In this document: positions 11,278-34,193 of the stretch, one piece after another
Layout: each line of letters opens with the position of its first letter
Position numbering within the stretch: position 1 is the stretch's first letter
Assembly (NCBI GenBank): GCA_964494295.1
Contig: CAZBTT010000002.1
Coordinates: forward strand, 1 to 34,193
Direction of reading: 5' to 3'
Length of the DNA: 34,193 nucleotides
Source: an uncultured Acidobacteriota bacterium
GTDB taxonomy: Bacteria; Acidobacteriota; Vicinamibacteria; Fen-336; JAGNNV01
The notes under the pieces: generated by a model
The model's input: only the letters and a program-made list of their open reading frames with translations
Told to the model about the DNA's origin: nothing
Database searches by the model: none
Made by a program: the position numbers and the translations under genes

Positions 11278-12488
11278 GCGCCGAACTCCTGAGGTTCCCG
11301 TCCCCGCCGGCCACGCTTCCGGTGTTCGTCACCGCGGCGGCGGCTGCGCTTCGCGTGGAGACCATGGACGACCCTGCGCTCTTCGCCGGACTCCGCGATC
11401 CCTGGAACGAGCTGCTCGAATCGAGCCCTTCGGACACGGTGTTCCTGACCTGGGAGTGGCTGCACACCTGGTGCGCGCATCTCTCCGCCGGAACGAAGCT
11501 CCACGTCATCACGGTCCGTCGAGGATCCCAGATCCTCGCCATCGCCCCATTCGTATCCCGGGGGAAGAGTCTTCTCGGCGCGTTGCGACTCTCCTTCATG
11601 GGCACCGGCCGCGTGGGATCCGACTATCTCGATATTCTCGTAAGGCACGGCGCTGCGGCCGAGGCCATTCCGAAACTGTCGGCCCACCTTCTTGAGACGG
11701 GCGCGCAGCTCGACCTCGCCCAGATGCGGATCCGGTCGAGCGCGGGACGCGCCCTGGCCCGCGAGCTTCGACTCCGCGGCGGTCTTGTCCGGGCGAAGCG
11801 GACGCACCGGTGTCCTTACATCGACCTCGCCGGGGCCACCTTCGATGCCTATCTCGGGAGCCTCGGCTCCGAGCATCGCTATAACTTCCAGAGAAAACTC
11901 CGCAAGCTCGAGACGGCGCACGCGATGAGATTCGAACCCGTCGCCTCAGAGGCGAGGCGACGCGAACTGCTTCCGGTGTTGTTCGAGCTGCACCGGCTGC
12001 GATGGAGGGAACGGGGCGGCTCCGACGGTCTTTCGGGCGAGGGAATCCCCGAGTTCCACGATGAGTGGTCGCGTCTCGCCCTGGAGCGTGGCTGGCTTCG
12101 GTTCTACGTCTTGTGGCTGAAGGACTCGCCGGCCGCGGCGCTTTATGGCTTCCGGTATGGCCGCGTCTTCTCCTTCTATCAATCGGGCTTCGACCCTCGC
12201 TTCTCGAAACTCAGTGTGGGCCTCGTGACCATGGGCCTCGCGATCCGGAGCGCCATTGAAGAAGGGGCTGCCGAATTTGATCTCCTCCACGGTGAGGAGT
12301 CGTACAAGCTCCACTGGGCGAAGCAGGCGCGCCGCCTGTGCCGGTTGAGCGTTTTCCCGAGGGGCCCCCTCGGCTATCTCGCGAGGGCTGGCGCCTCCGC
12401 CGGGGATTCCGTCCACCGCCTGGCGCGCCGGCTTCCAAAGGGACTGGTCTCGCGCATCGCCGCTCACCGACGAGGAGGGGCTCGGTGA
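11274..12488 (+). CDS. GNAT-fold CelD/BcsL / FemAB-related acyl(aminoacyl)transferase-like protein (copy 1)
   Basis: C-terminal FDLLHGEESYKLHWA motif and overall layout of the Acetyltransf_6/CelD family. AGGAGG at 11261-11266 lies 7 nt upstream of ATG 11274, which overlaps the upstream stop (ATGA). ATG 11268 is an alternative start. Confidence 0.8.
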   Translation: MSAELLRFPSPPATLPVFVTAAAAALRVETMDDPALFAGLRDPWNELLESSPSDTVFLTWEWLHTWCAHLSAGTKLHVITVRRGSQILAIAPFVSRGKSLLGALRLSFMGTGRVGSDYLDILVRHGAAAEAIPKLSAHLLETGAQLDLAQMRIRSSAGRALARELRLRGGLVRAKRTHRCPYIDLAGATFDAYLGSLGSEHRYNFQRKLRKLETAHAMRFEPVASEARRRELLPVLFELHRLRWRERGGSDGLSGEGIPEFHDEWSRLALERGWLRFYVLWLKDSPAAALYGFRYGRVFSFYQSGFDPRFSKLSVGLVTMGLAIRSAIEEGAAEFDLLHGEESYKLHWAKQARRLCRLSVFPRGPLGYLARAGASAGDSVHRLARRLPKGLVSRIAAHRRGGAR

Positions 12489-16824: not shown

Positions 16825-17672
16825 CCCGCCTCACCCGACGCGAGCACTGGGATGCGGTGCATGCCTTCGAGAGGGCCGATGTCCGCAAGACTCCCGAAGC
16901 GGAGAAGGGCTGGGCACGCCGCGCCCTGAAGCGGCTGGTTGGAAGTCGCTTCGTCGAATACATGTCGAGTTACGACGACCATCAGATCTGGGACCTTCTC
17001 TACCGGCGTCACATGCCGCTTCCCGGGGCGAGCGTGGTGGAGATCGGAAGCGCTCCGGGCGACCATCTGGTGAAACTGAGCGAGACCTTCGGCCTGGTGC
17101 CTTACGGCATCGAATACTCGCCCGCGGGTGTTGAGGTGAACCGGCTTCTCTTCGCGAGCCGCGGTCTTGACCCGGGGAACGTCCTGGCCATGGACTTCTT
17201 CTCCGAGGAGTGCCAGGAGCAGAACCAAGAGCGCTTTGACGTGGTCGTGTCCCGCGGCTTCATCGAGCACTTCGAGGAGCCAGCGTCCGTGGTCGACCGC
17301 CACATCGATCTTCTCAAGCCGGGAGGACTCCTGGTCGTGACGATCCCGAATCTTCGAGGCGTCAACCACACGCTGACGCGTCTCTTCCACCCCGAACTCA
17401 TTCCCATGCACAACCTTTCGATCATGTCGAAAGTGTCGTTCCTCCAGCTCTTCGACACCACCCGGGTGAGGCCCCTCGTCTGCGCCTACGTCGGGACGTT
17501 CAGCTTCTATCTCTTCAATGTGAAGGAAGGCTCTCGCCTCGCCCCTCTGCTGCGTCTGTGCATGAAGGCCCAGAGTCTCTTGAACGTGGTCTTCCGGACG
17601 TGCCTCGGAGATCGGGGCGCCGAGAATCGTTTCACCAGCCCGCAGCTCATCTTCATGGGCGTCAAGAGATAG
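16812..17672 (+). CDS. Class I SAM-dependent methyltransferase
   Basis: Motif I is VVEIGSAPGD, an acidic residue follows beta-2 (YGIEYS), and the post-I/II region is FDVVVSRGFIEHF..LKPGGLLVV. The ATG overlaps the upstream gene by 13 nt. Confidence 0.8.
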   Translation: MESLTRLTRREHWDAVHAFERADVRKTPEAEKGWARRALKRLVGSRFVEYMSSYDDHQIWDLLYRRHMPLPGASVVEIGSAPGDHLVKLSETFGLVPYGIEYSPAGVEVNRLLFASRGLDPGNVLAMDFFSEECQEQNQERFDVVVSRGFIEHFEEPASVVDRHIDLLKPGGLLVVTIPNLRGVNHTLTRLFHPELIPMHNLSIMSKVSFLQLFDTTRVRPLVCAYVGTFSFYLFNVKEGSRLAPLLRLCMKAQSLLNVVFRTCLGDRGAENRFTSPQLIFMGVKR

Positions 17673-17674
17673 CC

Positions 17675-19585
17675 ATGTGCGGCATCGTGGGGATCCTTCG
17701 CCTCCATCCATCTGCTCCAAGAGTGGACGCGGAGCGGCTGACCCGCATGCGCGATGTCCTGCGCCATAGAGGACCGGACGGAGAGGGCCTCCACATCAAG
17801 GAGCCCATCGGCCTCGGCCACCGCCGTCTCGCGATCGTGGACCTCGAAGGCGGACAGCAGCCGATGTGCAACGAGGACGGCACGCTGTGGATCACCTTCA
17901 ACGGAGAGATCTACAACCATGCCTCGCTCCGCCCCGGCCTCGAGGCTCGCGGCCACCGCTACAAGACCCGCAGCGATACCGAGACCATCCTTCACCTCTA
18001 TGAAGAGATGGGGGAGCGCTGTGTCGAGCGGCTCTCCGGAATGTTCGCTTTCGCGATCTGGGATGAAAAGCGAGAGCGGTTGCTCCTCGCCCGGGACCGC
18101 CTGGGAATCAAGCCGCTCTATTACGCGATCAGCGACCAGGAGCTGGTGTTCGCTTCCGAAGTGAAGGCGCTCCTCGAAGCCGGGCACCAGGCGCGACTGA
18201 ACGATCGCGCGCTGAGCGAGTACCTGGCCACGCGGTTCGTGTCGGGAGCATCGACCCTCTTCGAAGGGGTCAAGCGGCTGGAGCCGGGAAGGACCCTCAC
18301 GTGGTCGCGCGAGGATGGCTTCGCCGAGCGGCGATACTGGTCCATTCCACCGGTGTCCGAAGACACTCACTCTCCGCCGGCCGAGCGGGCGGAGGTTCTT
18401 GCGCTTCGGTTGCGCGAAGCCGTGAAGAGCCATCTGATGAGTGATGTTCCCCTTGGGCTCTTCCTGTCCGGGGGCATCGACTCGAGCGGCATCCTCGGCC
18501 TCATGGCTCCTCTCATGCGGGAGCCGGTCCGCACCTTCGCGGTGGGTTTCGCCGAACGGGAGGCCGATGAGCTCGCCTATGCGCGGCTCGCCGCCGAACG
18601 TGCGGGATCTATTCACCACGAGATGGTCGTTTCCGCGGACCAGTTCTTCGCCGAACTGCCTCGCTTGATCTGGCATGAAGACGAACCGATGGCGTTCGCC
18701 TCGAGCGTGCCCTTGTACTTCCTTTCACGGCATGCCCGCGATCACGTCAAGGTGGTGCTCACCGGCGAGGGCGCGGACGAGCTATTCCTCGGCTACAACC
18801 GTTATCGCGTCACCGCCTGGAACGAAAGGCTCGGGCGGGCCTATGCGTCGATGCTTCCCCAGGCCGCCCGCCGCGGCGTGCGCGGACTGGTGAAGCGCCT
18901 TCCGCGCCAGGCCGGCCGCTACCTCGAGCGGAGTTTCCTCGGCCAGCCGCCCGGCATGAGGTCTTTGTTCTGCGAAAACTTCGCGGTGTTCGATTCCTCG
19001 CGCCGGGAACGTCTGGTCGACCCGCAGATGCTCGGGAGTTCGGGGGATGCCCACGGTGAGGAAATGCGCTGCTACGACGAAGCTTCAGGTACGCCCCTCG
19101 ATCGCATGAGCCGGGCGGACCTTCAGACCTACCTGGGTCGGCTCCTGATGAAGCAGGACACGATGAGCATGGCCGCCTCGATCGAGAGCCGCGTGCCTTT
19201 TCTCGACCACGAGCTTGTCGAGCACGTCGCCGCGTTGCCTTCTTCGGCCAAGCTCCGGGGCTTCACCACGAAAGCGATTCTGCGCGACGCCCTCAAAGAT
19301 ATCGTTCCGAAGGAAATTCTGGCGCGCCCGAAGATGGGTTTCCCGGTTCCTCTCGGACCCTGGCTCGCCGGGCCTTTCTTCTCCGTGGTTCGCGAGTTCG
19401 TCCTCTCGCCCCGGGCGAGCGGACGGGGCCTGTTTCAGCCGAAGGCGATCGCGCGCCTCGTCGAGGAGCATCGCACCGGTGCGGTCGACCATGGCGAGCG
19501 CCTGTGGCTTCTCGTCAATCTCGAGATCTGGCATCGCGTGTTCGTCGACCGGGAGAGCGCGTCCTCGGTCATGAAGGCGGCCTGA
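17675..19585 (+). CDS. Asparagine synthase (glutamine-hydrolysing)-like amidotransferase (copy 2)
   Basis: MCGIVGI start (Cys2), RDRLGIKPLYY, SGGIDSS PP-loop, LTGEGADELFLGY, LWLLVNLEIWHRVF tail. Starts 2 nt after the upstream TAG. Confidence 0.92.
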   Translation: MCGIVGILRLHPSAPRVDAERLTRMRDVLRHRGPDGEGLHIKEPIGLGHRRLAIVDLEGGQQPMCNEDGTLWITFNGEIYNHASLRPGLEARGHRYKTRSDTETILHLYEEMGERCVERLSGMFAFAIWDEKRERLLLARDRLGIKPLYYAISDQELVFASEVKALLEAGHQARLNDRALSEYLATRFVSGASTLFEGVKRLEPGRTLTWSREDGFAERRYWSIPPVSEDTHSPPAERAEVLALRLREAVKSHLMSDVPLGLFLSGGIDSSGILGLMAPLMREPVRTFAVGFAEREADELAYARLAAERAGSIHHEMVVSADQFFAELPRLIWHEDEPMAFASSVPLYFLSRHARDHVKVVLTGEGADELFLGYNRYRVTAWNERLGRAYASMLPQAARRGVRGLVKRLPRQAGRYLERSFLGQPPGMRSLFCENFAVFDSSRRERLVDPQMLGSSGDAHGEEMRCYDEASGTPLDRMSRADLQTYLGRLLMKQDTMSMAASIESRVPFLDHELVEHVAALPSSAKLRGFTTKAILRDALKDIVPKEILARPKMGFPVPLGPWLAGPFFSVVREFVLSPRASGRGLFQPKAIARLVEEHRTGAVDHGERLWLLVNLEIWHRVFVDRESASSVMKAA

Positions 19586-23115: not shown

Positions 23116-24260
23116 TGGCCACCGAGGACCTCAAGGAACTCTCCGCCTTCTCCATCATCCGCGACGACTGGAATGGCCTCGTGGACGCGAGCGACCCCCA
23201 GCCTTTCTACCGCCACGAATACATCAAGGCGTTCATGGCGAACTTCCTCGAGGGAGCGCCGCTCGAAGTAGTGACCGTGCGCGACTCGTCGGGCCGGTTG
23301 ACCGCAGCCCTTCCCCTTGCCGTCGGGCGTGGCTCGATCTGCGGCATCGGCACGCGCGAACTGGCCTCGCCAACCAATGTCCACTCGCTGCGCTTCGACC
23401 TCTTGACCGCAGCGGGAACGGAGCCTCTGATCGATGAGGCCGCGCACGTCGTGTTCCAACATCTGGCCGCAGACAAACGCTGGGATGTTCTGAGACTCAC
23501 GGACATCCCGGAAGGCGGCAAGGCCTGGCGTGTGTATGCGGCGGCCCAGACGGCCGGATTTCCGGTGGGGGCCTGGAAGTCCCAGTGCAGTCCTTACATT
23601 GCACTTCCCGATTCGCAGGATGCCCTGATGAACCGTCTGAGCGCCAAGTTCAGGGCAAACCTGCGGCGGCGCAGGAAACGCCTCGCCGAGAATGGGGAAA
23701 TCACGTTCGAGCGTCTCTCGGGAACCGCCTTATCGCCCCACCATCTGGACGAGTCCCTGGTCATGGAGTCCGGTGGCTGGAAGGGTCGCCAGAGAAGTGC
23801 GGTGAACCAGAGCGAGGCCAGCCACGGCTTCCATCGAGAACTGTTTCTGGACCCGGAATACCGGGAGCGGCTCTCGCTCTTCCGCCTGAAGCTTCAAGGC
23901 CAGCCGATCGCATTCCAGTACGGAATCACGACGAACGACGTGTTTTCGCTGGTGATGACCAGCTATGACGAGTCTTTCTCAGCATTTAGTCCAGGTCATC
24001 TCCTCACCGAGGACGTGCTCAAGGACTGTGTGTCCCGCGGGCTTCGGGAGTTCGACTTCCTGGGGTGCGATCTTCCCTGGAAACTCGAGTGGACAAGCAC
24101 AGTCAGGCCACATTACTGGCTCTTCATCTTCCGGGACAGCGCGCGTGGACGTTTGCTTCGGAAGATCAAGTTCTCGTGGGTCCAAACGGCCCGCCAATTG
24201 CTTACAAAGTGGCGTATGCCTGCGTTGCCCAATCCTCGCCTGCCGAGGGTATCCCAGTGA
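23112..24260 (+). CDS. GNAT-fold CelD/FemAB-related protein (copy 3)
   Basis: See copy 2. GTG 23112 (GTGA overlap) or ATG 23115. Ends in a GTGA overlap with the next gene. Confidence 0.8.
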   Translation: MMATEDLKELSAFSIIRDDWNGLVDASDPQPFYRHEYIKAFMANFLEGAPLEVVTVRDSSGRLTAALPLAVGRGSICGIGTRELASPTNVHSLRFDLLTAAGTEPLIDEAAHVVFQHLAADKRWDVLRLTDIPEGGKAWRVYAAAQTAGFPVGAWKSQCSPYIALPDSQDALMNRLSAKFRANLRRRRKRLAENGEITFERLSGTALSPHHLDESLVMESGGWKGRQRSAVNQSEASHGFHRELFLDPEYRERLSLFRLKLQGQPIAFQYGITTNDVFSLVMTSYDESFSAFSPGHLLTEDVLKDCVSRGLREFDFLGCDLPWKLEWTSTVRPHYWLFIFRDSARGRLLRKIKFSWVQTARQLLTKWRMPALPNPRLPRVSQ

Positions 24261-26992
24261 CGAGCCTGCTCGTCGTCCTGATGGCCGCGGCCCTCTCTCA
24301 GGGAAGGGTCGAGTTGCCTCGTGCCCAGGTGGATGTCGCCTACCCTGCTCTCACCGGCCGGACGATTCGCGTCGCCGCCGCGGACGACTTCCAGGCCGCG
24401 CTTGAAGCGGCGCGTCCCGGCGACGAAATCACCCTTGCCGCGGGTGCTACGTTCACGGGCCCTTTCACTCTCCCCGCAAAAACCGGAACGGGCTGGATTG
24501 TCGTGCGGTCGAACGAGAGCGGACGCCTGACCAAGGGCAAACGGGTCAGGCCCGAAGACGCGGCATTCATGCCCAAGCTCGAATCGCGTTGGGGAGCGGT
24601 GATCAGCGCGGAGAGCGGGTCGCATCACTTCCGCTTCGTGGGCATGGAGATAAGGCCGGCTCAGAATGCATTCCTCACGAACGTCGTTCTGTTGGGATCC
24701 CGGGAAACCGTGCTGTCCGAAGTCCCCCACCACTTCGTTATCGATCGCTGTTTCATCCACGGGGACCCGGTTCGCGGTTCGCGCCGCGGCGTTGCCCTTG
24801 GATCGGAGGAAACCGCGGTCATCGACTCTTGGATTTCGGATTTCAAGGAGGGGACGGCCGACTCTCAGGCGATCGCGGGTTGGAACGGGCCCGGTCCCTA
24901 CCGTATCGAGAACAACTATCTCGAGGGCGCCGGTGAGAACCTGATGTTCGGCGGCGCCGACCCGCGGGTGCAGGGCCTCGTGCCCTCCGATATCGAGATC
25001 CTCCGGAACCACTTCAAGAAACCGCTCACCTGGAAGACCGGCGACCCGGCCTACGGGGGCGCCAAGTGGACGATCAAGAACCTGCTCGAACTCAAGAACG
25101 CGCGGCGCGTTCTGATCGCTGGGAATCTCTTCGAGCAGAACTGGGTCGCCGCGCAGAGTGGTTTCGCCATTCTCTTCACGGTCCGGAACCAGGACGGCAA
25201 GTCCCCCTGGTCGGTCGTGGAAGACGTCACCTTTGAGCACAACGTCATCCGCCACAGCGCTTCCGGCGTCAACATCCTCGGTCAGGACGATGCCGCCCCG
25301 AGCGGGCGCACCGCGCGCATCGCTATTCGCAACAATCTCTTCGAGGATATCGGCGGCGATCGCTGGGGAGGAGGCGGGCGACTCTTCCAGATTCTGCAGG
25401 GAGCCCGGGACGTGTCCATCGAGCACAACACCGCGCTCCAGACCGGCAGCATCGTGATGGCCGAGGGTCCGCCGAATCCAGGCTTCGTGTACAGAGACAA
25501 CATCGCGCCGCATAACGCGCAGGGCATTGTGGGCACCGGCGTCTCCTCGGGCCTCCCCACGCGCGCGGCCTTCTTCCCGGATGGGGTGTTCCGTCGGAAT
25601 GTGATCGCGGGCGGCGAGGCTTCGAACTATCCGCCCGACAACTTCTTCCCGGATTCGCTCGAGGACGTGGGTTTCGTGAACCGTAAGAGCCGCGACTATC
25701 GATTGAGCCCTTCGAGTCTCTACAGGCGGGCTGCGAGCGATGGGTCCGATGTGGGCGTCAACTACGAGAAGCTGCGTGACGCCCTTTCCGCAGCCACCGC
25801 TGCGCCGGCTCAGGGTGCGCTGATCGATCCGGCCGGCTCGGCTGAAACCGGACCCTGGATGACGCAATCGGTGTTCTGGCTATCGGTGTTGCTCCTCGGC
25901 TACGCGAACGTGGGTTATCCGGCCCTGCTGCTCCTTTGGGCTCGCGTGCGTCCCCGGCCGTTTCGGAAGGGGACACTCGAGCCGCGCGTGACCATGGTCA
26001 TCGCCGCCCACAATGAGCAGGGGGCGATCGGGGCCCGCCTGAACAACGTCCTCTCCCTCGACTATCCGAAGGATCGCTTCGATATCCTGCTTGGCCTCGA
26101 CGGTTGCTCGGACCAGACCGCCGAAGTCGCGCGCTTCCATGAAAGCGAGCGGGTCCGTGTTGTCGAGTTCGAGACCCGGCGCGGGAAACCGAGCGTCCTC
26201 AACGCGCTCCTGCCCATGGCGGGCGGGGACATCGTGGTGTTTGGAGACGCGCGGCAAAGATACGGCCGCGGCGCGCTCAAAGCTCTCGTGGCCCCTTTCG
26301 CGGACCCCGAAGTCGGGGCGGTGACGGGCGAACTGATCCTGACTGCGGGCGAGGGCCGGCCGCTCGAGAAGGGTCTGGGTCTCTACTGGCGAGTAGAGAA
26401 GGCGATTCGTCGCAGCGAGAGTGAAGTGGGTTCCGTAGTGGGGGCTACGGGCGCCATCTATGCGATGCGTCGCGAGTTGTTCGAGCCGCTTCCGCCGGAC
26501 ACCATTCTCGATGACGTCCTCGCTCCGATGCGCGTGGTCCGTCGCGGTTTCCGCGTCGTCTTCGAGCCCCTGGCCCGCGCCTACGACAAGGCGCCCACGT
26601 CCCTGGGCGGGGAGTTCGCCCGGAAGGTGCGAACGATCTCCGGAAACTTCCAGCTGTTCGCGCGCGAGCACTGGCTGCTTGGCTTCGGCAATCCGCTGCT
26701 GATCCAGACCCTGTCGCACAAGGGCCTTCGCCTGCTCACGCCGTTGCTGCTTCTGATGGCCCTTGGCGCGAATCTCTTGCTTCTCGACCGTCCTCTCTTC
26801 CAGTTGATCCTGCTGGCCCAGATTGCCTTCTACCTCACCGCGATCTTCGGACACTCCCTACGGAACCTGAAGATCCCCGGTCTCGGCGTGCCCTACGTCG
26901 TCTGCATGCTGGCAAGCGCCACCGCACTCGCCTTCTTCCGGCACGCGAGCAGCCGGCAAAAAGTGACATGGGTGAGGGAGGGAGAGGTATGA
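24257..26992 (+). CDS. Fusion protein: signal/anchor plus right-handed beta-helix (pectin-lyase-fold) domain, TM helix, synthase-like GT2 glycosyltransferase, C-terminal TM bundle
   Basis: The N-terminus VTSLLVVLMAAALSQG is hydrophobic. About 530 aa follow with beta-helix-type repeats (ARPGDEITLAAGATFTGPFTLPAKTGTGWIVVRS; NNYLEGAGENLMFGG; FEHNVIRHS; IEHNTALQ; YRDNIAPHN). From in-frame ATG 25859 comes a complete GT2: TM FWLSVLLLGYANVGYPALLLLW, VTMVIAAHNE, LGLDGCSDQT, VFGDARQ, GATGAIYAMRRELF, FARKVRTISGNFQ, then about 3 C-terminal TM helices. Confidence 0.82.
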   Translation: MTSLLVVLMAAALSQGRVELPRAQVDVAYPALTGRTIRVAAADDFQAALEAARPGDEITLAAGATFTGPFTLPAKTGTGWIVVRSNESGRLTKGKRVRPEDAAFMPKLESRWGAVISAESGSHHFRFVGMEIRPAQNAFLTNVVLLGSRETVLSEVPHHFVIDRCFIHGDPVRGSRRGVALGSEETAVIDSWISDFKEGTADSQAIAGWNGPGPYRIENNYLEGAGENLMFGGADPRVQGLVPSDIEILRNHFKKPLTWKTGDPAYGGAKWTIKNLLELKNARRVLIAGNLFEQNWVAAQSGFAILFTVRNQDGKSPWSVVEDVTFEHNVIRHSASGVNILGQDDAAPSGRTARIAIRNNLFEDIGGDRWGGGGRLFQILQGARDVSIEHNTALQTGSIVMAEGPPNPGFVYRDNIAPHNAQGIVGTGVSSGLPTRAAFFPDGVFRRNVIAGGEASNYPPDNFFPDSLEDVGFVNRKSRDYRLSPSSLYRRAASDGSDVGVNYEKLRDALSAATAAPAQGALIDPAGSAETGPWMTQSVFWLSVLLLGYANVGYPALLLLWARVRPRPFRKGTLEPRVTMVIAAHNEQGAIGARLNNVLSLDYPKDRFDILLGLDGCSDQTAEVARFHESERVRVVEFETRRGKPSVLNALLPMAGGDIVVFGDARQRYGRGALKALVAPFADPEVGAVTGELILTAGEGRPLEKGLGLYWRVEKAIRRSESEVGSVVGATGAIYAMRRELFEPLPPDTILDDVLAPMRVVRRGFRVVFEPLARAYDKAPTSLGGEFARKVRTISGNFQLFAREHWLLGFGNPLLIQTLSHKGLRLLTPLLLLMALGANLLLLDRPLFQLILLAQIAFYLTAIFGHSLRNLKIPGLGVPYVVCMLASATALAFFRHASSRQKVTWVREGEV

Positions 26993-27987
26993 GCCTCGTC
27001 CTCCAACGCCCGGATGGCACGGTCGAGATCGAGGAGCGCGCGGGCACGACGCGCCTTGTGACCGCTCGTCCGAAGGGGAGCGCTTCCCTCTCCTGCTCGA
27101 CCACCTATCCCATCGATCTCATCGAAGCGATCCTTGACGTCAAGGGCGCGGCGTGGGTGTGCGATGAGATCACCCGCGATCAGGACCCCGAATCGATCCA
27201 GCGCTTCTTCGAGAACGACTTTCTGCCCTACGTCAGCGCCGCGGAATTCGAAGGGAAGAGAGTGCTTGATTTCGGGTGCGGGTCGGGCGCCTCCACGATG
27301 GTCCTCGCCCGGATGTTCCCACGCTCGCGCATCGTCGGGATTGAACTCTCGCCGGAGTACCTCGACCTCGCACGAAGGAGACTGCGGTTCTACGGATACG
27401 GAAACGTCGAGTTTCTCCTCTCGCCCTCCGGCACGAGTCTGCCCGAGGGCCTCGGTCAGTTCGACTTCATCGTGATGAGCGCGGTGTTCGAACATCTCCT
27501 GCCGGACGAGCGCCGAACGATCATGCCGCGATTGTGGTCTCACCTGGCGCCCGGAGGCCGGCTGCTCCTCAATCAGACGCCCCATCGCTTCTTCCCCTTC
27601 GAGAGACACACCACGGGTCTGCCCTTCATCAACTATCTGCCCGACCGCGTCGCGCACTTCGTTTCGCGCCGTTTCTCCAACCGTTCGCTCGAACGGGAAT
27701 CCTGGGAGTCCCTGCTGAGAAAAGGGATCCGGGGCGCCACCGAACGCGAAATCCTCGCGAGTCTGGGGCCGTTGGCGAGCGGCGCACTCGTGGCGCCTCG
27801 GCAACCCGAGTATCGCGACCGCGTCGACGTCTGGTACGCGGCTCTCGGACCGCGGCATCGGCCGATGAAGGCCGCCGTCCGAGAGATGCTGCGCGTGGTC
27901 GAACGCGTGTCTGGCACCACGCTGGTCGTCAACCTGGCCCTTGCGATCTCCAAGGCCCCGGGCGTTCCGCGAGAGGCCCGCGTATGA
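26989..27987 (+). CDS. Class I SAM-dependent methyltransferase
   Basis: Motif I is VLDFGCGSGAST, then IVGIELS, then FDFIVMSAVFEHL..LAPGGRLLL. ATGA overlaps on both sides. Confidence 0.82.
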   Translation: MSLVLQRPDGTVEIEERAGTTRLVTARPKGSASLSCSTTYPIDLIEAILDVKGAAWVCDEITRDQDPESIQRFFENDFLPYVSAAEFEGKRVLDFGCGSGASTMVLARMFPRSRIVGIELSPEYLDLARRRLRFYGYGNVEFLLSPSGTSLPEGLGQFDFIVMSAVFEHLLPDERRTIMPRLWSHLAPGGRLLLNQTPHRFFPFERHTTGLPFINYLPDRVAHFVSRRFSNRSLERESWESLLRKGIRGATEREILASLGPLASGALVAPRQPEYRDRVDVWYAALGPRHRPMKAAVREMLRVVERVSGTTLVVNLALAISKAPGVPREARV

Positions 27988-29123
27988 AAGCACCCCGCCA
28001 GACGACTCGAAATAGACAGTGTTCGATGCCCGACAAGGCCGCGGAGCTTGCCCACCTGCTCGCCGGCACACGCCGTCCGCTTCGCCGGGCCCTCGAACTG
28101 CTGAGCCGTGACGCTCGCCGCGTGACGCGCGCGTTCCGCTCTCTCCTCCGGACGCTCGAACCGAGTCGCGACGCTTACACCACGCTCCTCGCTCCGGATC
28201 TCCTGTCGTGTTACACGTTTCTGCTGGCCCAAGGTCCGGTAACTGCGCGGGGAGATGAAGCCTTTTGCCTTGCGGTGGAGCGGGCGGCCCTCACCCTGGT
28301 GCGCTCCGGCGTGCCTGAAAACCACGCAACCGCGGTGGTTGGACTTCATCTCGAAGCCTGTCTTGCCTCGCTGCCGGGCGCCGCGGAAGCCCGCGCGGCG
28401 GCCCGCCTCAGTTCAGCGACCCAGTGGCTGGTGGCGGCCGCGTATTGCGAGGGACGGGTAGAGGGACTCCGGCGCCTCGACGACCAGGAGCGTCAGAAAC
28501 TCTCAGGCGACCTCCATGACGAGGTCGGCGCCGATCTGGTTGTGCTGAAGCTGTACGTCGAGATGATCGCCTCCGAGCTGGCCCGCGGTCGCCGCACCCC
28601 GCTCGGACCGAAGCTCGAAGAGGCCCTGGCCCTCATCGCCCATGCCATCGAGTCGGTGCGGCGCCTCACCCTTGACCTCGGTCCCGCCTTCCTCGACACC
28701 CTCGGCTTCATACCCGTTCTTCGAAACTTCGTCCGTCAGTATTCGCGGCGGACCGGCATCAAGGTGACCCTCGTGGAGCCCGATGCGAAAGTCTCGATGC
28801 CCCCGGGGCATGAAGCGGCGCTCTACCGTATCCTCCTGGGCGCCCTGTCGAACGTCGCGAAGCACGCGCACGCGCGCCGCGCGAGAGTGACGCTTCGCAG
28901 CGCCTCCAACACCTTCTTCATGGTGGTCGAGGATGACGGGAGAGGCTTCGATGTCCGGGCGCAGCGTCCCGATCACACCTTCGGAATCAACGCGATGCGG
29001 GAGAGGATCCACGGCCTGCACGGTCACCTCAAGGTCAGCTCGAGGCGAAAGGACCGCCCTGGCTCCCGATCGGGAACGCGCCTCGAGATCCGGCTTCCCC
29101 TGCGCAAAGGAACGATGTCGTGA
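27984..29123 (+). CDS. Sensor histidine kinase, HisKA_3/NarX-type, with no predicted TM segment
   Basis: H-box LSGDLHDEVGADLVVLKL, N-box LLGALSNVAKHAHA, G1 VEDDGRGF, G2 region FGINAMRERIHGLHGHLKV..SGTRLEIRLPL. The N-terminal ~165 aa are helical and Ala/Arg/Leu-rich with no 20-residue hydrophobic stretch. ATG 27984 (ATGA overlap). ATG 28026 is an alternative start. Confidence 0.85.
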   Translation: MKAPRQTTRNRQCSMPDKAAELAHLLAGTRRPLRRALELLSRDARRVTRAFRSLLRTLEPSRDAYTTLLAPDLLSCYTFLLAQGPVTARGDEAFCLAVERAALTLVRSGVPENHATAVVGLHLEACLASLPGAAEARAAARLSSATQWLVAAAYCEGRVEGLRRLDDQERQKLSGDLHDEVGADLVVLKLYVEMIASELARGRRTPLGPKLEEALALIAHAIESVRRLTLDLGPAFLDTLGFIPVLRNFVRQYSRRTGIKVTLVEPDAKVSMPPGHEAALYRILLGALSNVAKHAHARRARVTLRSASNTFFMVVEDDGRGFDVRAQRPDHTFGINAMRERIHGLHGHLKVSSRRKDRPGSRSGTRLEIRLPLRKGTMS

Positions 29124-30700
29124 ATCCCAGGATCCGCGTCCTCCTTTGCGACGATCACCCGCTTCTTCGCGAGGGTCTGCGCGCCATTCTGCGCGAGCAC
29201 CCGGGCTTCGAGGTCGTGGGCGAAGCGAAGAACGGACTCGAAGCGGTCAGCCAGTTTCGGACCCTTCGACCGGACGTGGCCCTGATGGATATCGACATGC
29301 CGGAGCTGTCGGGGCTCGAAGCCACCAAGCGCATTGTCGAGGCCCGACTGCCCGGGAAAGTGCTGATCCTCAGTTTGTACGATGACGAAGACCTGATCGC
29401 CGGGTGCCTCGATGCGGGCGCGGTCGGCTATGTGCTGAAGGACGGGCCCACGAGCGAACTCCTCTTCGCGATCGAGGCCGCGCATCGGGGCGAGCGATAC
29501 ATGAGTCCGCGCGCTCTCTCCGTGGTCATCGAACACGCGCGCGAGGGCGGAGACAAGACGGGCACCCGCTTCGACCTCCTGACCGACCGAGAGCGCGAGG
29601 TGCTGCGGCGCCTGGCCGACGGCCACTCCAGCAAGGACATCGCTTTGAAACTGAACCTGAGCATCAAGACCGTCGAGGCCCACAAGTACAACCTGATGCG
29701 GAAGCTCGACATCCACAACCGCGCGGATCTCGTGAAATACGCGATCCGCAAGAAGCTGGTGCAGGTGGGCGCCCTTGTGCTGACCCTCGGCGCGAGCATC
29801 GTCGGCGCAGCCCTTCAGCCCTCCCCCCCCGCGCGTATCGAGGAGAACAGCGGGGCCGTGACCTGGATCGGATCGTGGTCGACCAACGCCCTGCCCCTGA
29901 ACAGCGGCGGCGGCGCCAGACTGGCGATGGACAAGGGAGCCGAGGCACGGCTCGACTTCGCGGGCACGTCCGTCGAATGGATCGGTTATCGCGATGAATG
30001 GTCGGGCCTTGCCGATGTTCTCGTCGACGGTGAGTTCCAGGCCACGATCGACACGTTCGCGAAACCCGCCCAGGCGCAGGCGACGCTTTTCCGGGCTCGC
30101 GGCCTGCGCGAGGGCCGCCACACTCTCGCCATCAGGCCCCGGGGAGATCATCAGAAAGACTCCAGGGGTGCGTGGGTGTGGGTGGATGCCTTCATCGTTG
30201 GAGAGTCGCGAGAAGACTCAACTCCCCTTGACCGCCCGGTCGCGCAGAGCCGCCGCGACCGGCAGGCAAACCGGGATCCGGACCGACGGGGGACCTCTCG
30301 CCGCGAGACCGGCGCCCCGCGGATACAGGTCGATCAGGAGGACGAGGCCGTGACATGGGCGGGCTCCTGGTCCACGAACAGACTCCCGGTTCATCGCGGG
30401 CGCAGCGCCCGACTCGCCATGGAGAGCACGTCTTCGGTGTCCCTGACCTTCACCGGCACCGGGGTGAGCTGGATCGGCTACCGCGACGAGTGGTCGGGAA
30501 TCGCCGAAGTCCTTCTCGACGGAAGACACCGCGCCACCGTGGACACCTATTCGAAGGCCGCCCGGGGTCAAGTGGAGCTCTACACCGTCGATGGTCTCCG
30601 CGACGGGCCCCACACCCTGACCATTCAACCCACGAGCCGCAAAAGTCCCATGTCGGGCGGGGCATGGATCTGGGTGGACGGATTCCTGATCACACGCTGA
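29120..30700 (+). CDS. NarL/FixJ-type response regulator (REC + LuxR HTH) fused in frame to a hydrophobic helix and two tandem ~120-aa CBM-like beta-sandwich repeats
   Basis: REC residues: DD at 11-12, D57 in DVALMDIDMP, S85, K107. LuxR HTH: LTDREREVLRRLADGHSSKDIALKLNLSIKTVEAHKYNLMRKL. The frame then continues with IRKK-LVQVGALVLTLGASIVGAAL and two repeats, each with the (S/A)WIGYRDEWSG(L/I)A and GAW(V/I)WVD(A/G)F signatures. GTG 29120 overlaps the HK stop (GTGA). No stop codon occurs between the HTH and the repeats. Confidence 0.85.
   Translation: MNPRIRVLLCDDHPLLREGLRAILREHPGFEVVGEAKNGLEAVSQFRTLRPDVALMDIDMPELSGLEATKRIVEARLPGKVLILSLYDDEDLIAGCLDAGAVGYVLKDGPTSELLFAIEAAHRGERYMSPRALSVVIEHAREGGDKTGTRFDLLTDREREVLRRLADGHSSKDIALKLNLSIKTVEAHKYNLMRKLDIHNRADLVKYAIRKKLVQVGALVLTLGASIVGAALQPSPPARIEENSGAVTWIGSWSTNALPLNSGGGARLAMDKGAEARLDFAGTSVEWIGYRDEWSGLADVLVDGEFQATIDTFAKPAQAQATLFRARGLREGRHTLAIRPRGDHQKDSRGAWVWVDAFIVGESREDSTPLDRPVAQSRRDRQANRDPDRRGTSRRETGAPRIQVDQEDEAVTWAGSWSTNRLPVHRGRSARLAMESTSSVSLTFTGTGVSWIGYRDEWSGIAEVLLDGRHRATVDTYSKAARGQVELYTVDGLRDGPHTLTIQPTSRKSPMSGGAWIWVDGFLITR
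29756..29815 (+). other. Candidate transmembrane helix (or cryptic signal-peptide core) inside the response-regulator ORF
   Basis: LVQVGALVLTLGASIVGAAL has 20 uncharged residues apart from one Gln. It is preceded by IRKK (positive-inside) and followed by QPSPPAR. Confidence 0.55.
29840..30202 (+). other. CBM-like repeat 1 of the response regulator
   Basis: ENSGAVTWIGSWSTN...ARLDFAGTSVEWIGYRDEWSGLADVLVDG...GRHTLAIRP...GAWVWVDAFIV. Aligns along its full length with repeat 2 and with 33135..33515 (- strand). Confidence 0.7.
30332..30697 (+). other. CBM-like repeat 2 of the response regulator
   Basis: EAVTWAGSWSTN...SLTFTGTGVSWIGYRDEWSGIAEVLLDG...GPHTLTIQP...GAWIWVDGFLITR. Confidence 0.7.
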
Positions 30701-33084
30701 TGTGGGAACTGCGCGCCCTCTTTTCCTTGTGGGGCCTCACGCTTGCCCCGGACGCGCTGGTTCTCGACTCGGGAGTCCACCTGCCGGTGCTCTACGACTC
30801 CTTCGTGCCTCCCGCCCTCGGCCAGACCTACGTGGACCAGACCTTCAGCACCACCATCAAACGCCTCTCTGATGCGGTGAACACTCCAAACCATGCGGCG
30901 AGCGGCAACCTCCTGTGGATTGGCACGGAATACCCGACCGCCTCGCCCTGGAACGTCAACAACAGCTGGCTGATCCTCCAGCACCAGGGCTACTTCGGCC
31001 TCTACGACGGCGGTGGAACCTACGTTCGCGACCTCCCCTTCTCCGTGAATGCCGCGACCGAGCCGCGCTGGTCGCGCACCGACCCGAACGTCCTTTTCTA
31101 CGTGAGCGGGAACAGGCTCATGCGGCTCGATGTTTCCGCGGGTGCGTCCTCTATCGTCCGGACCTTCAGCGAATACTCGGCGATTCGCGGCCGCGGCGAG
31201 TCGGACATCAGCCGGGACGGCGATCACTTCGTGTTTGCCGGAGATGCCCCCGGCGGCCTCGCCAACCGGTATGTGTTCGTCTACCAGATCAGCACGAATA
31301 CGAAGGGCGCGGTCCTCGACACCATCGGTCACTCCTTCAACCAGCTCTACCTCGCCTCGGACAACAGCGTGGCACTTGGATGGATCGCGGCCGGGACCGC
31401 CCGTTATAGCGGCGTCGAACTCTTCGACCGCAACATGATCTTTCAGCGTCAGCTCACCCGGGCGATCGGGCACATGCGCCTGACCCGCGACACGAACGGC
31501 GCCGATGTGCTGATCTGGACGAACTCGGGCGATCCGCAACCGATTCCAAATTGCCAGAATGGGATCGTCAAGGTGCGGCTGTCGAACGCTCAACAGACCT
31601 GCCTGCTTCAACTCGATTGGAGTCTCGCGGTCCACATCACCGCCGGAGACGGAGACGGATGGGCCTTCGTGGAGACCTACGATCCGGCTGATCCGCCCGC
31701 GTCCACCCCCGCCTGGAAGCCCTACACGAACGAGATTATTCAGGTGAAGCTCGATGGGACCGAGGCTCGAAGACTGCTCCACCACCGCAGCCGTCAGACC
31801 GCAAACTACGAATACCAGCCCCGGGCCACGGTCAGCCGCGACGGCACGACCCTCGTCTACTCGAGCACGTATAACCTCGAGGGGACGAGCGGCCACGCCT
31901 TCGGATACACGGATGCGTACATGATCGCCGTTCCCGGATCTCCGACTCCACAACTCTCGATCGCAGACGTAACCGCGCACGAGGGTACGGGCGCTACGAC
32001 CATGGTCTTCACGGTCAGGCTTTCGCATATCACCGACGTGCCGGTGAGCGTCCAGTACCAGACGGCGAACGGCACCGCGACCGCCGGAAGCGACTACACC
32101 GCGGCCGGTCCCCTGACGTTGACCTTCCCCCCTCTGACCGCCAGCCGGACGTTCTCCATCACCCTCCTGGGTGACCATGTGATCGAGCCCGATGAGACGT
32201 TTCATGTGAATCTTTCGAACCCGACGAATGCGACCCTCTCGGATCCGTCCGGCCTCGGGACGATCATCAACGATGACTCCACGCGCGTGTTCGTGGCGCA
32301 CTCCGGCGACGATGCCGGCCTTTGCTCGAACATAGCCACGCCCTGTCGGAGCCTGGCCGGGGCGATGACCCAGGCAGCCGAGAACGGAGAAATCATCGTG
32401 ATGACCTCGGGCGAATACGAAACCGCTCCCCTGGTGATCACAAGGGGTGTCGCGGTTTCCGCGTCCCTCGGCGCCGTCGTGCTCATTCGCCAGCCGATCA
32501 CCCTAGCCGCCCCGGGAGCGCGCGTTGTCTTGCGTGGCCTGACCCTCAAGGGAGCAGGGGTGTCAACCGCTCTCACGCTCACCGCGGGGCACACTTTGTC
32601 TCTTGAAGACAGCTCGATCGAACGCTGGAACGTCGGCTTCAGGATCGCCAACACAACCGGGGCGCGCGTGATCGTCTCGAATGTGGTCTTCCGCGGCAAC
32701 GGGTCGGGCATCAACGACGACGGAGGGCCCGCGGGAAATCGCGTGGCGGTCGAGGAAACGCGGTTTGAGGGCAATCTCAACGGAATCGACGTCTGGAGCG
32801 GCGCCTTCGTCGTGCGTGAGTCCGCATTCGTCGGGAACAGCGGAAACGGCGTCGTGGCGGGTCCCGGAACGGTTCAAGTCCACCGGAGCGAGTTCGCTTT
32901 CAACACCACCGGTGTCAGGACGCGCGCCTCTGGAACCGCGCGAATCAGCGGATGCCGGGTCTTCGGCAACGCGACCGGACTCTGGGCCGAGGCCTCGAGC
33001 AGCCTCGTGACCGCGGGCGGAAACGGCATCCGCGGTAACGGCGTCAACACTCAGGGCGTGATCACAGCCGCGCCGGCGCAGTAG
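30700..33084 (+). CDS. Large multidomain protein: PD40/TolB-like propeller-type N-domain, Calx-beta domain, and right-handed beta-helix C-domain
   Basis: N-domain has repeated 'S(R/P)DG..lvf'-type blades (ISRDGDHFVFAG, VSRDGTTLVYSS, DPNVLFYVSGNRLMRLD). Calx-beta spans 31951..32277 (LSIADVTAHEGTGATTMVFTVRLS..VSVQYQTANGTATAGSDYT..DHVIEPDETFHVNLSNP). C-domain has DUF1565/beta-helix-like repeats (TPCRSLAGAMTQAAENGEIIVMTSGEY; FRGNGSGI; FEGNLNGI; FVGNSGNGV; FGNATGL; IRGNGVN). ATG 30700 shares 1 nt with the RR stop. The N-terminal signal peptide is weak or uncertain. Confidence 0.8.
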   Translation: MWELRALFSLWGLTLAPDALVLDSGVHLPVLYDSFVPPALGQTYVDQTFSTTIKRLSDAVNTPNHAASGNLLWIGTEYPTASPWNVNNSWLILQHQGYFGLYDGGGTYVRDLPFSVNAATEPRWSRTDPNVLFYVSGNRLMRLDVSAGASSIVRTFSEYSAIRGRGESDISRDGDHFVFAGDAPGGLANRYVFVYQISTNTKGAVLDTIGHSFNQLYLASDNSVALGWIAAGTARYSGVELFDRNMIFQRQLTRAIGHMRLTRDTNGADVLIWTNSGDPQPIPNCQNGIVKVRLSNAQQTCLLQLDWSLAVHITAGDGDGWAFVETYDPADPPASTPAWKPYTNEIIQVKLDGTEARRLLHHRSRQTANYEYQPRATVSRDGTTLVYSSTYNLEGTSGHAFGYTDAYMIAVPGSPTPQLSIADVTAHEGTGATTMVFTVRLSHITDVPVSVQYQTANGTATAGSDYTAAGPLTLTFPPLTASRTFSITLLGDHVIEPDETFHVNLSNPTNATLSDPSGLGTIINDDSTRVFVAHSGDDAGLCSNIATPCRSLAGAMTQAAENGEIIVMTSGEYETAPLVITRGVAVSASLGAVVLIRQPITLAAPGARVVLRGLTLKGAGVSTALTLTAGHTLSLEDSSIERWNVGFRIANTTGARVIVSNVVFRGNGSGINDDGGPAGNRVAVEETRFEGNLNGIDVWSGAFVVRESAFVGNSGNGVVAGPGTVQVHRSEFAFNTTGVRTRASGTARISGCRVFGNATGLWAEASSSLVTAGGNGIRGNGVNTQGVITAAPAQ
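31951..32277 (+). other. Calx-beta domain within the 30700..33084 protein
   Basis: Canonical Calx-beta pattern: V..EG.G...F.V.LS.....V.V.Y.T.NGTA.AGSDY.......L.F.P......F.I....D...E.DE.F.V.LSNP.NA.L. Confidence 0.8.
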
Positions 33085-33131: not shown

Positions 33132-34193
33132 TCAGCGCGACACCGCGAAAGCATCCACCCAGACCCACGAGCCGGCCGCCCCCGGTCTTCGCGTGCCCGT
33201 CACCTCGATGGTGAGTGTGTGCGTGCCGTTCGACAGACCGCTGATGGTGTAGAGCGTAGCCTGCGCTACCCCGCTCGGGGCATAGGTGTCGACCGTACCC
33301 TTGACCACGCCGTCCACTCTGATCGTGGCTATACCCGACCACTCATCACGGTAGCCGACCCAGGAGGCGCCGCTTCCTGAGAACACGAAGGTGGCGGTGG
33401 ACCCTTGATCCATCGAGAGCACCGCGCTGCCGCCGCTGTTCGTCGCCCGAGCGTTGGGTGACCACGATCCCACGTAGCTCACGCTGGAGCTGTTCTGCTC
33501 GACGAGGTTGCCGCCGGCCGCGGGAGCTGGCAGGGGCGCCGGCGCCGGCGCGGGTGCGGGGGTCGGGGCCGGAGTCGTCGGCGACGTCGGAGGCGGCGTG
33601 GGCAATGGAGTCCCCGCGGGCTCGGTCGAGGGTGTCGTGGAGGAGCCCGAAACCTGGATCATGTAGGCATCGGAGTACAGGCTCGGGTAACCGAGAATCG
33701 ACTGCAGAGAATGGTTGCTCGTGAACGCGAGCCTGCTGCCGTCGCGGCTTGACGTCACCTTCGGCTGGTAGACATAGCTGTCCCCGCCGAAGGGGCGGCT
33801 GCGGTGATGAACCAGCCGACGGGTTTCCGAACCGTCGAGCTTCACCTGGAGGATCTCGTTCGCATAGGGAACCCACGCCGAGGACTGAGGGAAGGGATCG
33901 CTTGGAGCGTAGGTCTCGACGAAGGCCCAGCCGTTGCCGTCAGGGGCCGTGATGTGGACGGCGAGGCTCCAGTCGAGCTGCAGCAGGCACGTCTGCTGCG
34001 CGTCTGAGAGGCGCACCTTCACGATGCCGTTCTGGCACGCGATGGGCTGAGCGTCGGCCGAGTTGTTCCAGATGAGGACGTCCTGGCCATTGTCGACAGT
34101 GATGTCCATGTGGCCGATGGCGTGAGTCAGCTGACGCTGGAAATTCATGTTGCGATCGAAGAGCTCAACACCCTGGTACCGACTCGAGCCGTT
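33132..34193 (-). CDS. Paralog of the 30700..33084 N-domain, followed by a Pro/Thr/Ala linker and a C-terminal CBM-like domain (third copy). 5'-truncated by the window edge
   Basis: The - strand frame stays open to nt 34193. The residues upstream of the track's Met (..SSRYQGVELFDRNMNFQRQLT) align with ..TARYSGVELFDRNMIFQRQLT of the + strand protein, so the gene starts outside the window. Shared blocks include CQNGIVKVRLS(D/N)AQQTCLLQLDWSLAVHITA and GWAFVETY. The C-terminus is ...SWVGYRDEWSGIATIRVDG...GSWVWVDAFAVSR. Confidence 0.85.
   Translation of the reverse strand, partial: NGSSRYQGVELFDRNMNFQRQLTHAIGHMDITVDNGQDVLIWNNSADAQPIACQNGIVKVRLSDAQQTCLLQLDWSLAVHITAPDGNGWAFVETYAPSDPFPQSSAWVPYANEILQVKLDGSETRRLVHHRSRPFGGDSYVYQPKVTSSRDGSRLAFTSNHSLQSILGYPSLYSDAYMIQVSGSSTTPSTEPAGTPLPTPPPTSPTTPAPTPAPAPAPAPLPAPAAGGNLVEQNSSSVSYVGSWSPNARATNSGGSAVLSMDQGSTATFVFSGSGASWVGYRDEWSGIATIRVDGVVKGTVDTYAPSGVAQATLYTISGLSNGTHTLTIEVTGTRRPGAAGSWVWVDAFAVSR
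33135..33515 (-). other. CBM-like domain, third copy (C-terminus of the convergent paralog)
   Basis: Aligns without large gaps to both repeats of the response regulator and shares the WxGYRDEWSG and WVWVDAF signatures. Confidence 0.7.
33516..33644 (-). other. Pro/Thr/Ala-rich interdomain linker
   Basis: SSTTPSTEPAGTPLPTPPPTSPTTPAPTPAPAPAPAPLPAPAA, typical of linkers in secreted multidomain carbohydrate-active proteins. Confidence 0.75.

Follow-up and report, generated by a model that had tools for sequence, protein, structure and literature searches.

The window analysed here, meaning the whole stretch of 34,193 nucleotides (nt), comprises positions 1 to 34,193 of contig CAZBTT010000002.1 of assembly GCA_964494295.1 from an uncultured member of the Acidobacteriota (Vicinamibacteria, Fen-336, JAGNNV01). 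Our subject is a gene (29120..30700, + strand) in which a two-component response regulator runs on, in one reading frame, into a tandem carbohydrate-binding module (CBM)-like protein. Its open reading frame (ORF) has 526 codons without an internal stop, so that the frame does pass through the DNA-binding domain into a hydrophobic stretch, as a preliminary description of this DNA had reported. On the evidence of the ORF, of Pfam and of the orthologs P0002-P0006, the product consists of a receiver (REC) domain (amino acids (aa) 7-118, 29138..29473; Pfam Response_reg, E 8e-26), a LuxR/GerE helix-turn-helix (HTH) (aa 153-208, 29576..29743; Pfam GerE, E 9e-21), a hydrophobic segment derived from a signal peptide (aa 213-233, 29756..29818), a first beta-sandwich repeat (aa ~238-362, 29831..30205), a disordered Arg/Asp-rich linker (aa 363-404, 30206..30331) and a second beta-sandwich repeat (aa 405-526, 30332..30697), all on the + strand.

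The regulator half carries all residues of the acidic pocket and switch (D11, D12, D57, S85 and K107), and REC was modelled by AlphaFold2 (AF2) with a predicted local distance difference test score (pLDDT) above 90 in the full-length model. These features and the two Pfam matches bear out the earlier reading of an apparently phosphorylatable receiver followed by a LuxR-type HTH. The NCBIfam models NarL, UvrY and MctR align with aa 5-213, all with scores under their equivalog cutoffs, and a weak match to the PEP-CTERM-associated EpsA regulator model was also obtained. The 526-aa protein gave no Pfam match to Trans_reg_C, to kinase domains or to HTH_18; for DNA binding it has GerE rather than an OmpR-type winged helix. 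The GTG start is preceded by an AAGGA Shine-Dalgarno-like motif. When aa 1-233 were used as the query of a database search, the regulator half was 84-87% identical to stand-alone Vicinamibacteria regulators of 222-223 aa, annotated in their source databases as NreC/NarL family. Six fused proteins that are >90% identical to this query were not listed by the search, probably a property of the tool. The fused protein thus shares with NarL/FixJ (NreC-like) regulators the full acidic pocket, S85, K107, the GerE HTH and a GTGA coupling to a HisKA_3 kinase, and differs in that such regulators are soluble and of ~200-230 aa, while here 300 C-terminal residues (the hydrophobic segment and two beta-sandwiches) are added. 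The statement that NarL-type regulators stop right after ..IRKKL did not survive the comparison: regulator orthologs (218-234 aa) end 9-17 residues past KKL, and the unfused ones continue for about ten residues, VHVSAIxGGL, before the stop codon.

The partner of this regulator is a soluble HisKA_3-type histidine kinase of 379 aa (27984..29123, +), whose HisKA_3 (35.7 bits) and HATPase_c (37.6 bits) scores are above the Pfam cutoffs. No hydrophobic segment was detected, the best 19-mer reaching a Kyte-Doolittle value of 1.39, and its TGA stop overlaps the regulator GTG by 4 nt (GTGA). The earlier account of a kinase without transmembrane (TM) segments, GTGA-coupled to its partner, was therefore correct. 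Sequence matches in the PDB (VraS, DesK) cover the catalytic core only; the N-terminal ~165 aa (27984..28478) matched neither a PDB sequence nor, at E<=1, any Pfam family. This part, kept in fused and split loci, has the appearance of a cytoplasmic input domain without a family. The kinase ATG overlaps the stop of an upstream methyltransferase gene, and the same kinase gene lies upstream in fused and split loci alike. Cytoplasmic HisKA_3 kinases are ordinary (NreB/NreC type), and the pair is an ordinary NarL/NreC-type regulator with a cytoplasmic HisKA_3 kinase. As the kinase lacks TM segments in unfused loci too, their absence is no adaptation to the fusion. What had been called a topologically inverted system is instead an ancestral trio of TM-less kinase, regulator and repeat protein, found unfused in many Vicinamibacteria.

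The C-terminal half was modelled separately with AF2 (aa 234-526, 90 homologs). The model consists of two all-beta sandwiches and a disordered linker, with a mean pLDDT of 89.6; pLDDT exceeds 90 in repeat 1, a CBM-like jelly roll, and falls below 50 in the linker. Between themselves the repeats show 52% identity (64/123), and of the 42 linker residues 11 are Arg and 5 Asp; the tandem arrangement proposed from the sequence was recovered in the model. With the Pfam cutoff at 27.9 bits, CE2_N scores 33.9 bits over the whole protein; no single stretch passes alone, and the best one (aa 436-503) lies in repeat 2. In a Foldseek comparison against the PDB, the confidently modelled sandwiches matched CBM-type structures: xanthan lyase 6f2p (E 2e-11), the xanthan-binding module MiXBM (7ehg, target TM-score 0.69), the CE2 esterase N-domains 6hfz and 6hh9, BT_2959 (3nqh), a malectin-like domain, CBM35/36-type xylanase modules and the RsgI-type anti-sigma sensor domain 6qdi. 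At 14-20% sequence identity to CBM and CE2 structures, the models support a CBM-like assignment at the level of fold. The resemblance to CE2 N-domains and CBM jelly rolls such as MiXBM thus extends to the CE2_N match and the fold; CE2 esterases carry a catalytic domain, whereas none is attached in the fused protein.

To place the tandem module among its relatives we searched databases with the C-terminal 317 residues of the 526-aa protein and considered the best 120 of 245 matches, to which the counts of fused genes given below refer. Among the matches listed and the GTDB loci the module is mainly acidobacterial, and it is a family of its own, mainly of Acidobacteriota. Elsewhere it forms the C-terminus of proteins with PKD, SBBP, DUF7948 or NHL domains, an extracytoplasmic setting that points to no particular ligand, and in a Terriglobia genome it adjoins exopolysaccharide (EPS) export genes. 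The Arg/Asp-rich linker is specific to Vicinamibacteria members and very variable in length; Terriglobia/Bryobacterales homologs (P0037, P0041, P0042) have a short Gly/Ser/Thr linker.

Among the matches listed, the REC-GerE-repeat architecture was found in the window protein and at least five other clusters, which are 73-85% identical to it and were assembled from different samples (NCBI, ENA and Logan assemblies). The fused orthologs (P0002-P0006) lie in syntenic loci (L001, L009, L010, L012, L013): the contigs of three clusters (L001, L009, L010) proved to have the same gene order, and L012 and L013 are GTDB species representatives, both labelled Vicinamibacteria. The fused forms are monophyletic, with >=76% identity among the six and <=62% to any split form. 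More than 100 further tail homologs are stand-alone proteins of ~270-350 aa with ordinary N-terminal signal peptides. The survey of homologs thus gave six fused clusters and over a hundred split relatives. As to independent fusions, regulator and repeats share one ORF only in L012 and L013 among 80 GTDB loci, and among 80 JGI metagenome loci only split forms were present. A second, divergent fused lineage had seemed to exist in L092-L094, which gave ~50% identity across the junction query. It was rejected, as translation showed that a stop follows ...SAIDGDS and that, 3-9 nt on, another gene begins in the same frame; these loci had looked fused because tblastn read through the stop codon. The fusion is rare and, among the matches listed, confined to one small clade of uncultured soil Vicinamibacteria.

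Selection was assessed from dN, dS and indels in four fused genes. Their dS values are 0.3-0.8, and dN/dS is 0.03-0.06 for REC, 0.01-0.06 for the HTH region, 0.12-0.27 for repeat 1 and 0.10-0.19 for repeat 2; both halves evolve as though their roles were unchanged. The repeats keep the invariant Trp, Asp, Gly and His positions of the secreted homologs. Indels of 7 and 15 codons just past the hydrophobic segment preserve the frame, as do those by which the inter-repeat linker varies in length among fused orthologs. In favour of an artefact of sequencing or assembly, or of a recent accident resembling a pseudogene, one can cite that the data are metagenomic and that a C-rich run (CCCTCCCCCCCCG, 29820-29832) lies just past the segment. 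Yet the recurrence of the fusion in six clusters assembled from different samples (NCBI, ENA, Logan), their origin in one clade, strong purifying selection on both halves and frame-preserving indels make an assembly error or a decaying pseudogene so improbable that we set it aside. The worry that a stop codon or frame had been lost in a single assembly is removed by the same six clusters, and from these sequence comparisons we are nearly certain that the fusion is real and functional.

How the fusion arose can be read from the split relatives. Their operon in Vicinamibacteria has the order GT2 glycosyltransferase, methyltransferase, TM-less HisKA_3 kinase, NarL-type regulator of 222-223 aa and secreted repeat protein. 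Split regulators end in ...VKYAIRKKLVHVSAIxGGL and a stop codon, and the secreted protein begins M..RR, followed by a hydrophobic core and A-x-A↓QP..RFEE (the arrow marks the signal-peptidase site here and below). In several split lineages its gene starts 3-12 nt after the regulator and in the same frame. The fused junction reads ...VKYAIRKKLVQVGAL-VLTLGASIVGAAL-QPSPPARIEE, that is, regulator tail, signal-peptide core and start of the mature protein. Compared with the split arrangement ~20-35 codons are gone: the final few codons and the stop of the regulator, a spacer with the GAGG ribosome-binding site, the ATG and the charged n-region. These junction sequences show that the fusion arose by an in-frame deletion joining the regulator gene to the adjacent secreted-protein gene, and that the hydrophobic segment is the C-terminal tail of the regulator (LVQVGAL) joined to the hydrophobic core of the downstream signal peptide.

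Other features of the junction were seen in split loci. In L003 (7986-8003), L005 and L092-L094 the regulator and secreted-protein genes are in frame with a stop and 3-12 nt between them, and a single stop-codon mutation there would give a read-through fusion with a full signal peptide. An extra gene of 224 aa with a weak GNAT match stands between regulator and secreted protein in L011 (2864-3538), L007 (5330-6004), L098 and L110. The N-terminus ME(N/D)..ARL(T/A)R of the secreted protein in L005, L093 and L094 resembles the first ~12-20 codons of the 224-aa gene, which suggests that an earlier deletion grafted a new N-terminus onto the signal peptide and that the junction is a hotspot of in-frame remodelling.

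The loss of the ancestral start bears on the idea that two products are made by initiation inside the HTH region (at ATG M193, 29696, or GTG V205, 29732), with the fusion as a minor by-product. In-frame ATG or GTG codons do occur at aa 193, 205, 214, 216 and 220, and translation from V205 would yield M-KYAIRKK-LVQVGAL..., a textbook signal peptide. However, none of these codons has a Shine-Dalgarno-like motif upstream, while the regulator start has AAGGA; the ancestral GAGG and ATG are deleted; the same codons are plain HTH residues in split regulators; and the regulator would in any case still read through into the fusion. Because a ribosome-binding motif is missing and the ancestral start is gone, we consider internal initiation very unlikely.

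The segment itself (LVQVGALVLTLGASIVGAAL-Q) was delimited by junction comparison with split loci and by hydropathy in Kyte-Doolittle 19-mer windows. It contains the sole strongly hydrophobic 19-mer of the protein (aa 213-231, 1.97), is Gly/Ala/Ser-rich and uncharged over 21 residues, and has R210-K211-K212 directly on its N-side. Unlike N-terminal Sec signal peptides it starts at residue 213. Across the fused proteins it stays uncharged and hydrophobic despite many substitutions, and the layout RKK + LVQVGALVLTLGASIV + G-A-A↓L is kept in 6/6, with small residues at -3/-1 in each (GAA↓L, GAG↓L or SGA↓I). In the window protein the signal-peptidase-like site is G-A-A↓L-Q-P, 20 residues from K212; in the split protein P0015 the distance from R7 to the cleavage site is 19. 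Stand-alone signal peptides usually end small-x-small↓Q-P, then ..RFEE, and small-x-small-Q is present in 57/87 stand-alone homologs. The estimated free energy of insertion (dG) of the segment is +1.5 to +3.3 kcal/mol, a marginal hydrophobicity, and in the full-length AF2 model the segment has a pLDDT of 42-68 and is helical only at aa 218-223, a long helix not being confidently modelled. Of the earlier description, the hydrophobic stretch with a positive N side stands; what was read there as a TM-like helix is a former cleavable signal peptide that keeps small residues at -3/-1.

In all relatives the repeats are extracytoplasmic, either behind a signal peptide or fused to PKD, SBBP or NHL domains. 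Since they are under purifying selection in the fused proteins, the segment would still drive their export, and on this sequence evidence an N-in/C-out topology is likely. The opposing view is that the segment does not enter the membrane, and that the protein is a soluble cytoplasmic regulator whose beta-sandwiches have a cytoplasmic role or are decaying. It would account for the hydrophobicity, marginal for a stand-alone TM helix, for the low AF2 confidence of the segment and for the odd position of an export signal 212 residues from the N-terminus, behind folded domains. ToxR, CadC, RsiV and FecR, on the other hand, are inserted type II proteins with large N-terminal cytoplasmic domains, and insertion of such proteins is routine; the segment is uniformly uncharged and hydrophobic despite its substitutions; and the repeats evolve at a dN/dS of 0.10-0.27 with the same invariant Trp, Asp, Gly and His as the secreted homologs. 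Because the repeats are under selection, a non-inserted cytoplasmic fusion appears unlikely.

Whether the exported part would then be cut off or stay attached is, as far as these sequences can tell, an evenly balanced matter. Cleavage is plausible from the small residues at -3/-1, the charge-to-site distance, the marginal hydrophobicity, the lack of a confident long helix and the variable, disordered Pro/Arg/Asp-rich linker after the segment. Small residues at -3/-1 and a signal-peptide-like length mean that the ectodomain may be clipped, in which case there would be no coupling of the ToxR/CadC style. Three observations weigh against cleavage. The fused segment is more hydrophobic than most split signal peptides (19-mer 1.95 vs a mean of 1.63; dG ~2.3 vs a median of 4.1). 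The residue before Q-P is a bulky Leu or Ile in 6/6 fused proteins, while split ones usually have A↓Q-P, so that the canonical site has possibly been lost. Finally, the -3/-1 evidence comes from six closely related sequences, too few to show selection there.

If uncleaved, the segment would act as a signal-anchor, and the product would be a single-pass type II protein with a NarL-type DNA-binding module inside and two CBM-like domains outside. The RKK charges on the N-side and the uncharged stretch of 21 residues fit a type II anchor; the segment exceeds most ancestral signal peptides in length and hydrophobicity, because the regulator tail LVQVGAL was added to it; and in 6/6 the position before Q-P is taken by Leu or Ile, where Ala is usual. 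The fusion has been kept through dS of up to 0.8, the fold matches include a xanthan-binding module and the RsgI anti-sigma sensor domain, the operon is rich in membrane-protein genes, whose DNA may thus lie near the membrane, and membrane-bound proteins with REC and DNA-binding domains are catalogued in a census (PMC10269533). Several findings are hard to reconcile with an anchor. A signal-peptidase-compatible site is present in 6/6; there is essentially no linker from the last HTH helix (aa 201-210), which continues directly into ...IRKK, to the segment (aa 213 on); and the outside linker is variable and disordered, making mechanical coupling poor. Moreover, the repeat protein of unfused relatives is a free secreted protein and not a sensor, the regulator half, at 84-87% identity to its soluble orthologs, shows nothing that would suggest adaptation to a different way of working, and the TM residues evolve almost neutrally. 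We regard a permanent anchor as possible but somewhat doubtful. A lipoprotein ancestry of the segment was also considered as an argument for permanent anchoring; it was set aside as uninformative, a lipobox-like motif being present in just 14/87 stand-alone homologs. Of the proposal of a ToxR/CadC-like tethered regulator, then, the fusion holds and, from selection on the repeats, the N-in/C-out orientation is likely; a lasting attachment of the ectodomain competes with cleavage.

Two systems offer precedents for cleavage. In the type II protein RsiV, signal peptidase cuts an A-x-A site at the TM/ectodomain junction, after which the site-2 protease acts (PMC9044953), and RseP has both remnant signal peptides and single-span type II proteins among its substrates (PMC8144685). 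Our preferred reading is a processed polyprotein, a scheme that as a whole we hold tentatively and at somewhat less than an even chance. The segment would keep working as an export signal: REC-HTH would fold in the cytoplasm while the Sec machinery threads both beta-sandwiches across the membrane (N-in/C-out), and type I signal peptidase would cut at the retained G-A-A↓L-Q-P. The freed tandem CBM-like protein, as in unfused relatives, might bind the polysaccharide of the operon. The regulator would remain tail-anchored at the inner membrane face, where the soluble HisKA_3 kinase would phosphorylate it at D57, and it could act on promoters in its vicinity while still membrane-bound, or once a site-2 protease had taken off the remnant anchor. 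Such a polyprotein would tie the synthesis and location of the regulator 1:1 to the export of its partner. With or without cleavage, the sequence predicts a regulator that is at the membrane at least transiently.

By analogy with lysozyme and RsiV, one may also imagine that the EPS of the operon or its fragments bind the ectodomain and expose or hide the signal-peptidase site, whereupon a site-2 protease would free REC-HTH; we find this version improbable. The repeat protein of the unfused ancestors cannot have been the sensor of the system, so that the related suggestion of a feedback sensing of the polymer is a hypothesis and does not follow from the data.

The neighbouring genes are those of a polysaccharide locus. 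Pfam matches upstream include Poly_export, GNVR, AAA_31, Bac_transf, Wzy_C, several GT4, Acetyltransf_6, DegT and methyltransferases. The operon also holds two AsnB-like glutamine amidotransferase/asparagine synthase genes (962..2896 and 17558..19585, +), a polysaccharide deacetylase-GT4 fusion (12338..14656) and a heparinase II/III-like gene (14284..16824). A large GT2 glycosyltransferase and an S-adenosylmethionine methyltransferase, identified with Pfam (together 24065..27987, +), precede the kinase in every related locus. The GT2 protein (24065..26992, +) has 975 aa, of which Pfam covers only aa ~640-920; its N-terminal ~600 residues have no family match, and this extension is kept in all related loci (910-956 aa). 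On the other side, a secreted protein with Calx-beta and right-handed beta-helix regions (30700..33084, +; Pfam Calx-beta, Beta_helix, NosD) has its ATG overlapping the stop of the fusion (TGATG). The fused gene is hence not the last of the operon; of its earlier placement at the 3′ end of an EPS operon, the EPS setting is borne out by the Pfam content and the terminal position is not. Related loci carry other secreted proteins at this position (DUF4214, Calx-beta/FG-GAP, or two Calx-beta genes).

A convergent gene (33132..34148, -), whose ORF is open to the window end, encodes an extra C-terminal copy of the beta-sandwich module (hidden Markov model from the module alignment, E 1.8e-55). Its counterpart in L001 (9826-11181, -) has the module after a Pro/Thr-rich linker and an N-terminal domain homologous to the protein of 30700..33084. 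A KaiC-like ATPase was observed a few kb downstream of split loci, along with two KaiB genes and a HisKA-HATPase-REC hybrid kinase (L003/L004, 13632-15809). In L011 a KaiB-kinase fusion (10210-11856) takes the place of the hybrid kinase, and an Hpt-REC protein recurs nearby in L007, L008 and L011.

In textbook two-component signalling the response regulator is the soluble half, and to our knowledge membrane-bound response regulators are known almost only within large hybrid kinases or as uncharacterised catalogue entries. The fused protein is best filed among the hybrid transmembrane transcription regulators, defined in a 2023 census by TM, DNA-binding and two-component domains in one polypeptide (PMC10269533); with REC, GerE and the hydrophobic segment it belongs there if the segment is counted as TM. 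The census reports Response_reg in 9.2% of transmembrane transcription regulators (TTRs), GerE as the third most common DNA-binding domain, and single-TM, kinase-free entries 'Response_reg,GerE' (261 aa), 'Response_reg,HTH_25' (457 aa) and 'Response_reg,HTH_18' (PMC10269533). No CE2_N-bearing entry was found in the portion of its supplements covered here (PMC10269533). Literature searches gave no papers on membrane-bound, -anchored or -tethered response regulators by those phrases, and nothing relevant on LuxR regulators with a C-terminal TM. The novelty earlier ascribed to a REC-HTH-TM-CBM protein is thereby narrowed: the broad class is already catalogued, and the exact architecture is absent from the census descriptions in the part covered (PMC10269533). 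Within these limits we found no description of a REC-GerE-segment-tandem CE2_N-like architecture or of its origin, the broad class being catalogued and not characterised.

Compared with individual systems, the fused protein shares its domain order with the TTRs ToxR and CadC: the DNA-binding domain is N-terminal and cytoplasmic, one hydrophobic span follows, and the C-terminal domain is extracytoplasmic. ToxR and CadC are one-component proteins with an OmpR-type winged helix, whereas the fused protein has GerE, REC and a coupled kinase; its span was until recently a signal peptide and keeps a signal-peptidase-type site, and a cytoplasmic linker is almost lacking. Classical Bacteroides hybrids unite an N-terminal periplasmic sensor, TM, HisKA/HATPase, REC and an AraC-type HTH in one chain; in our case a soluble kinase is encoded by its own gene, and the HTH is followed, not preceded, by the ectodomain. 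According to the same census, the hybrid two-component systems of Bacteroides sense glycans in the periplasm (PMC10269533). With the anti-sigma factors RsiV and RsgI the fused protein would share the type II topology predicted here and an extracytoplasmic domain of ligand-binding type, the RsgI-type domain 6qdi being among the fold matches. RsiV is cut at the TM/ectodomain junction only on ligand binding, and the fused protein has a compatible candidate site motif; the cytoplasmic part is an anti-sigma domain in RsiV and RsgI and a response regulator here.

The evolutionary path of this fusion is unusually clear: two in-frame genes 3-12 nt apart, one in-frame deletion, and a signal peptide turned into a link. 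It could show how transmembrane transcription regulators arise. Since close relatives whose operons are otherwise the same carry either the fused or the unfused version, nature has set up an experiment on membrane tethering, or on polyprotein-style co-export, of a response regulator. If the ectodomain signals, the protein would be a compact link from an outside polymer to a phosphorylated transcription factor. If ligand-gated release were true, expression would need both the extracytoplasmic polymer (for release) and the kinase signal (for phosphorylation), an AND gate that has not been described for any two-component system. The fusion may also help to explain the control of exopolysaccharide in soil Acidobacteria, which matters for soil aggregation.

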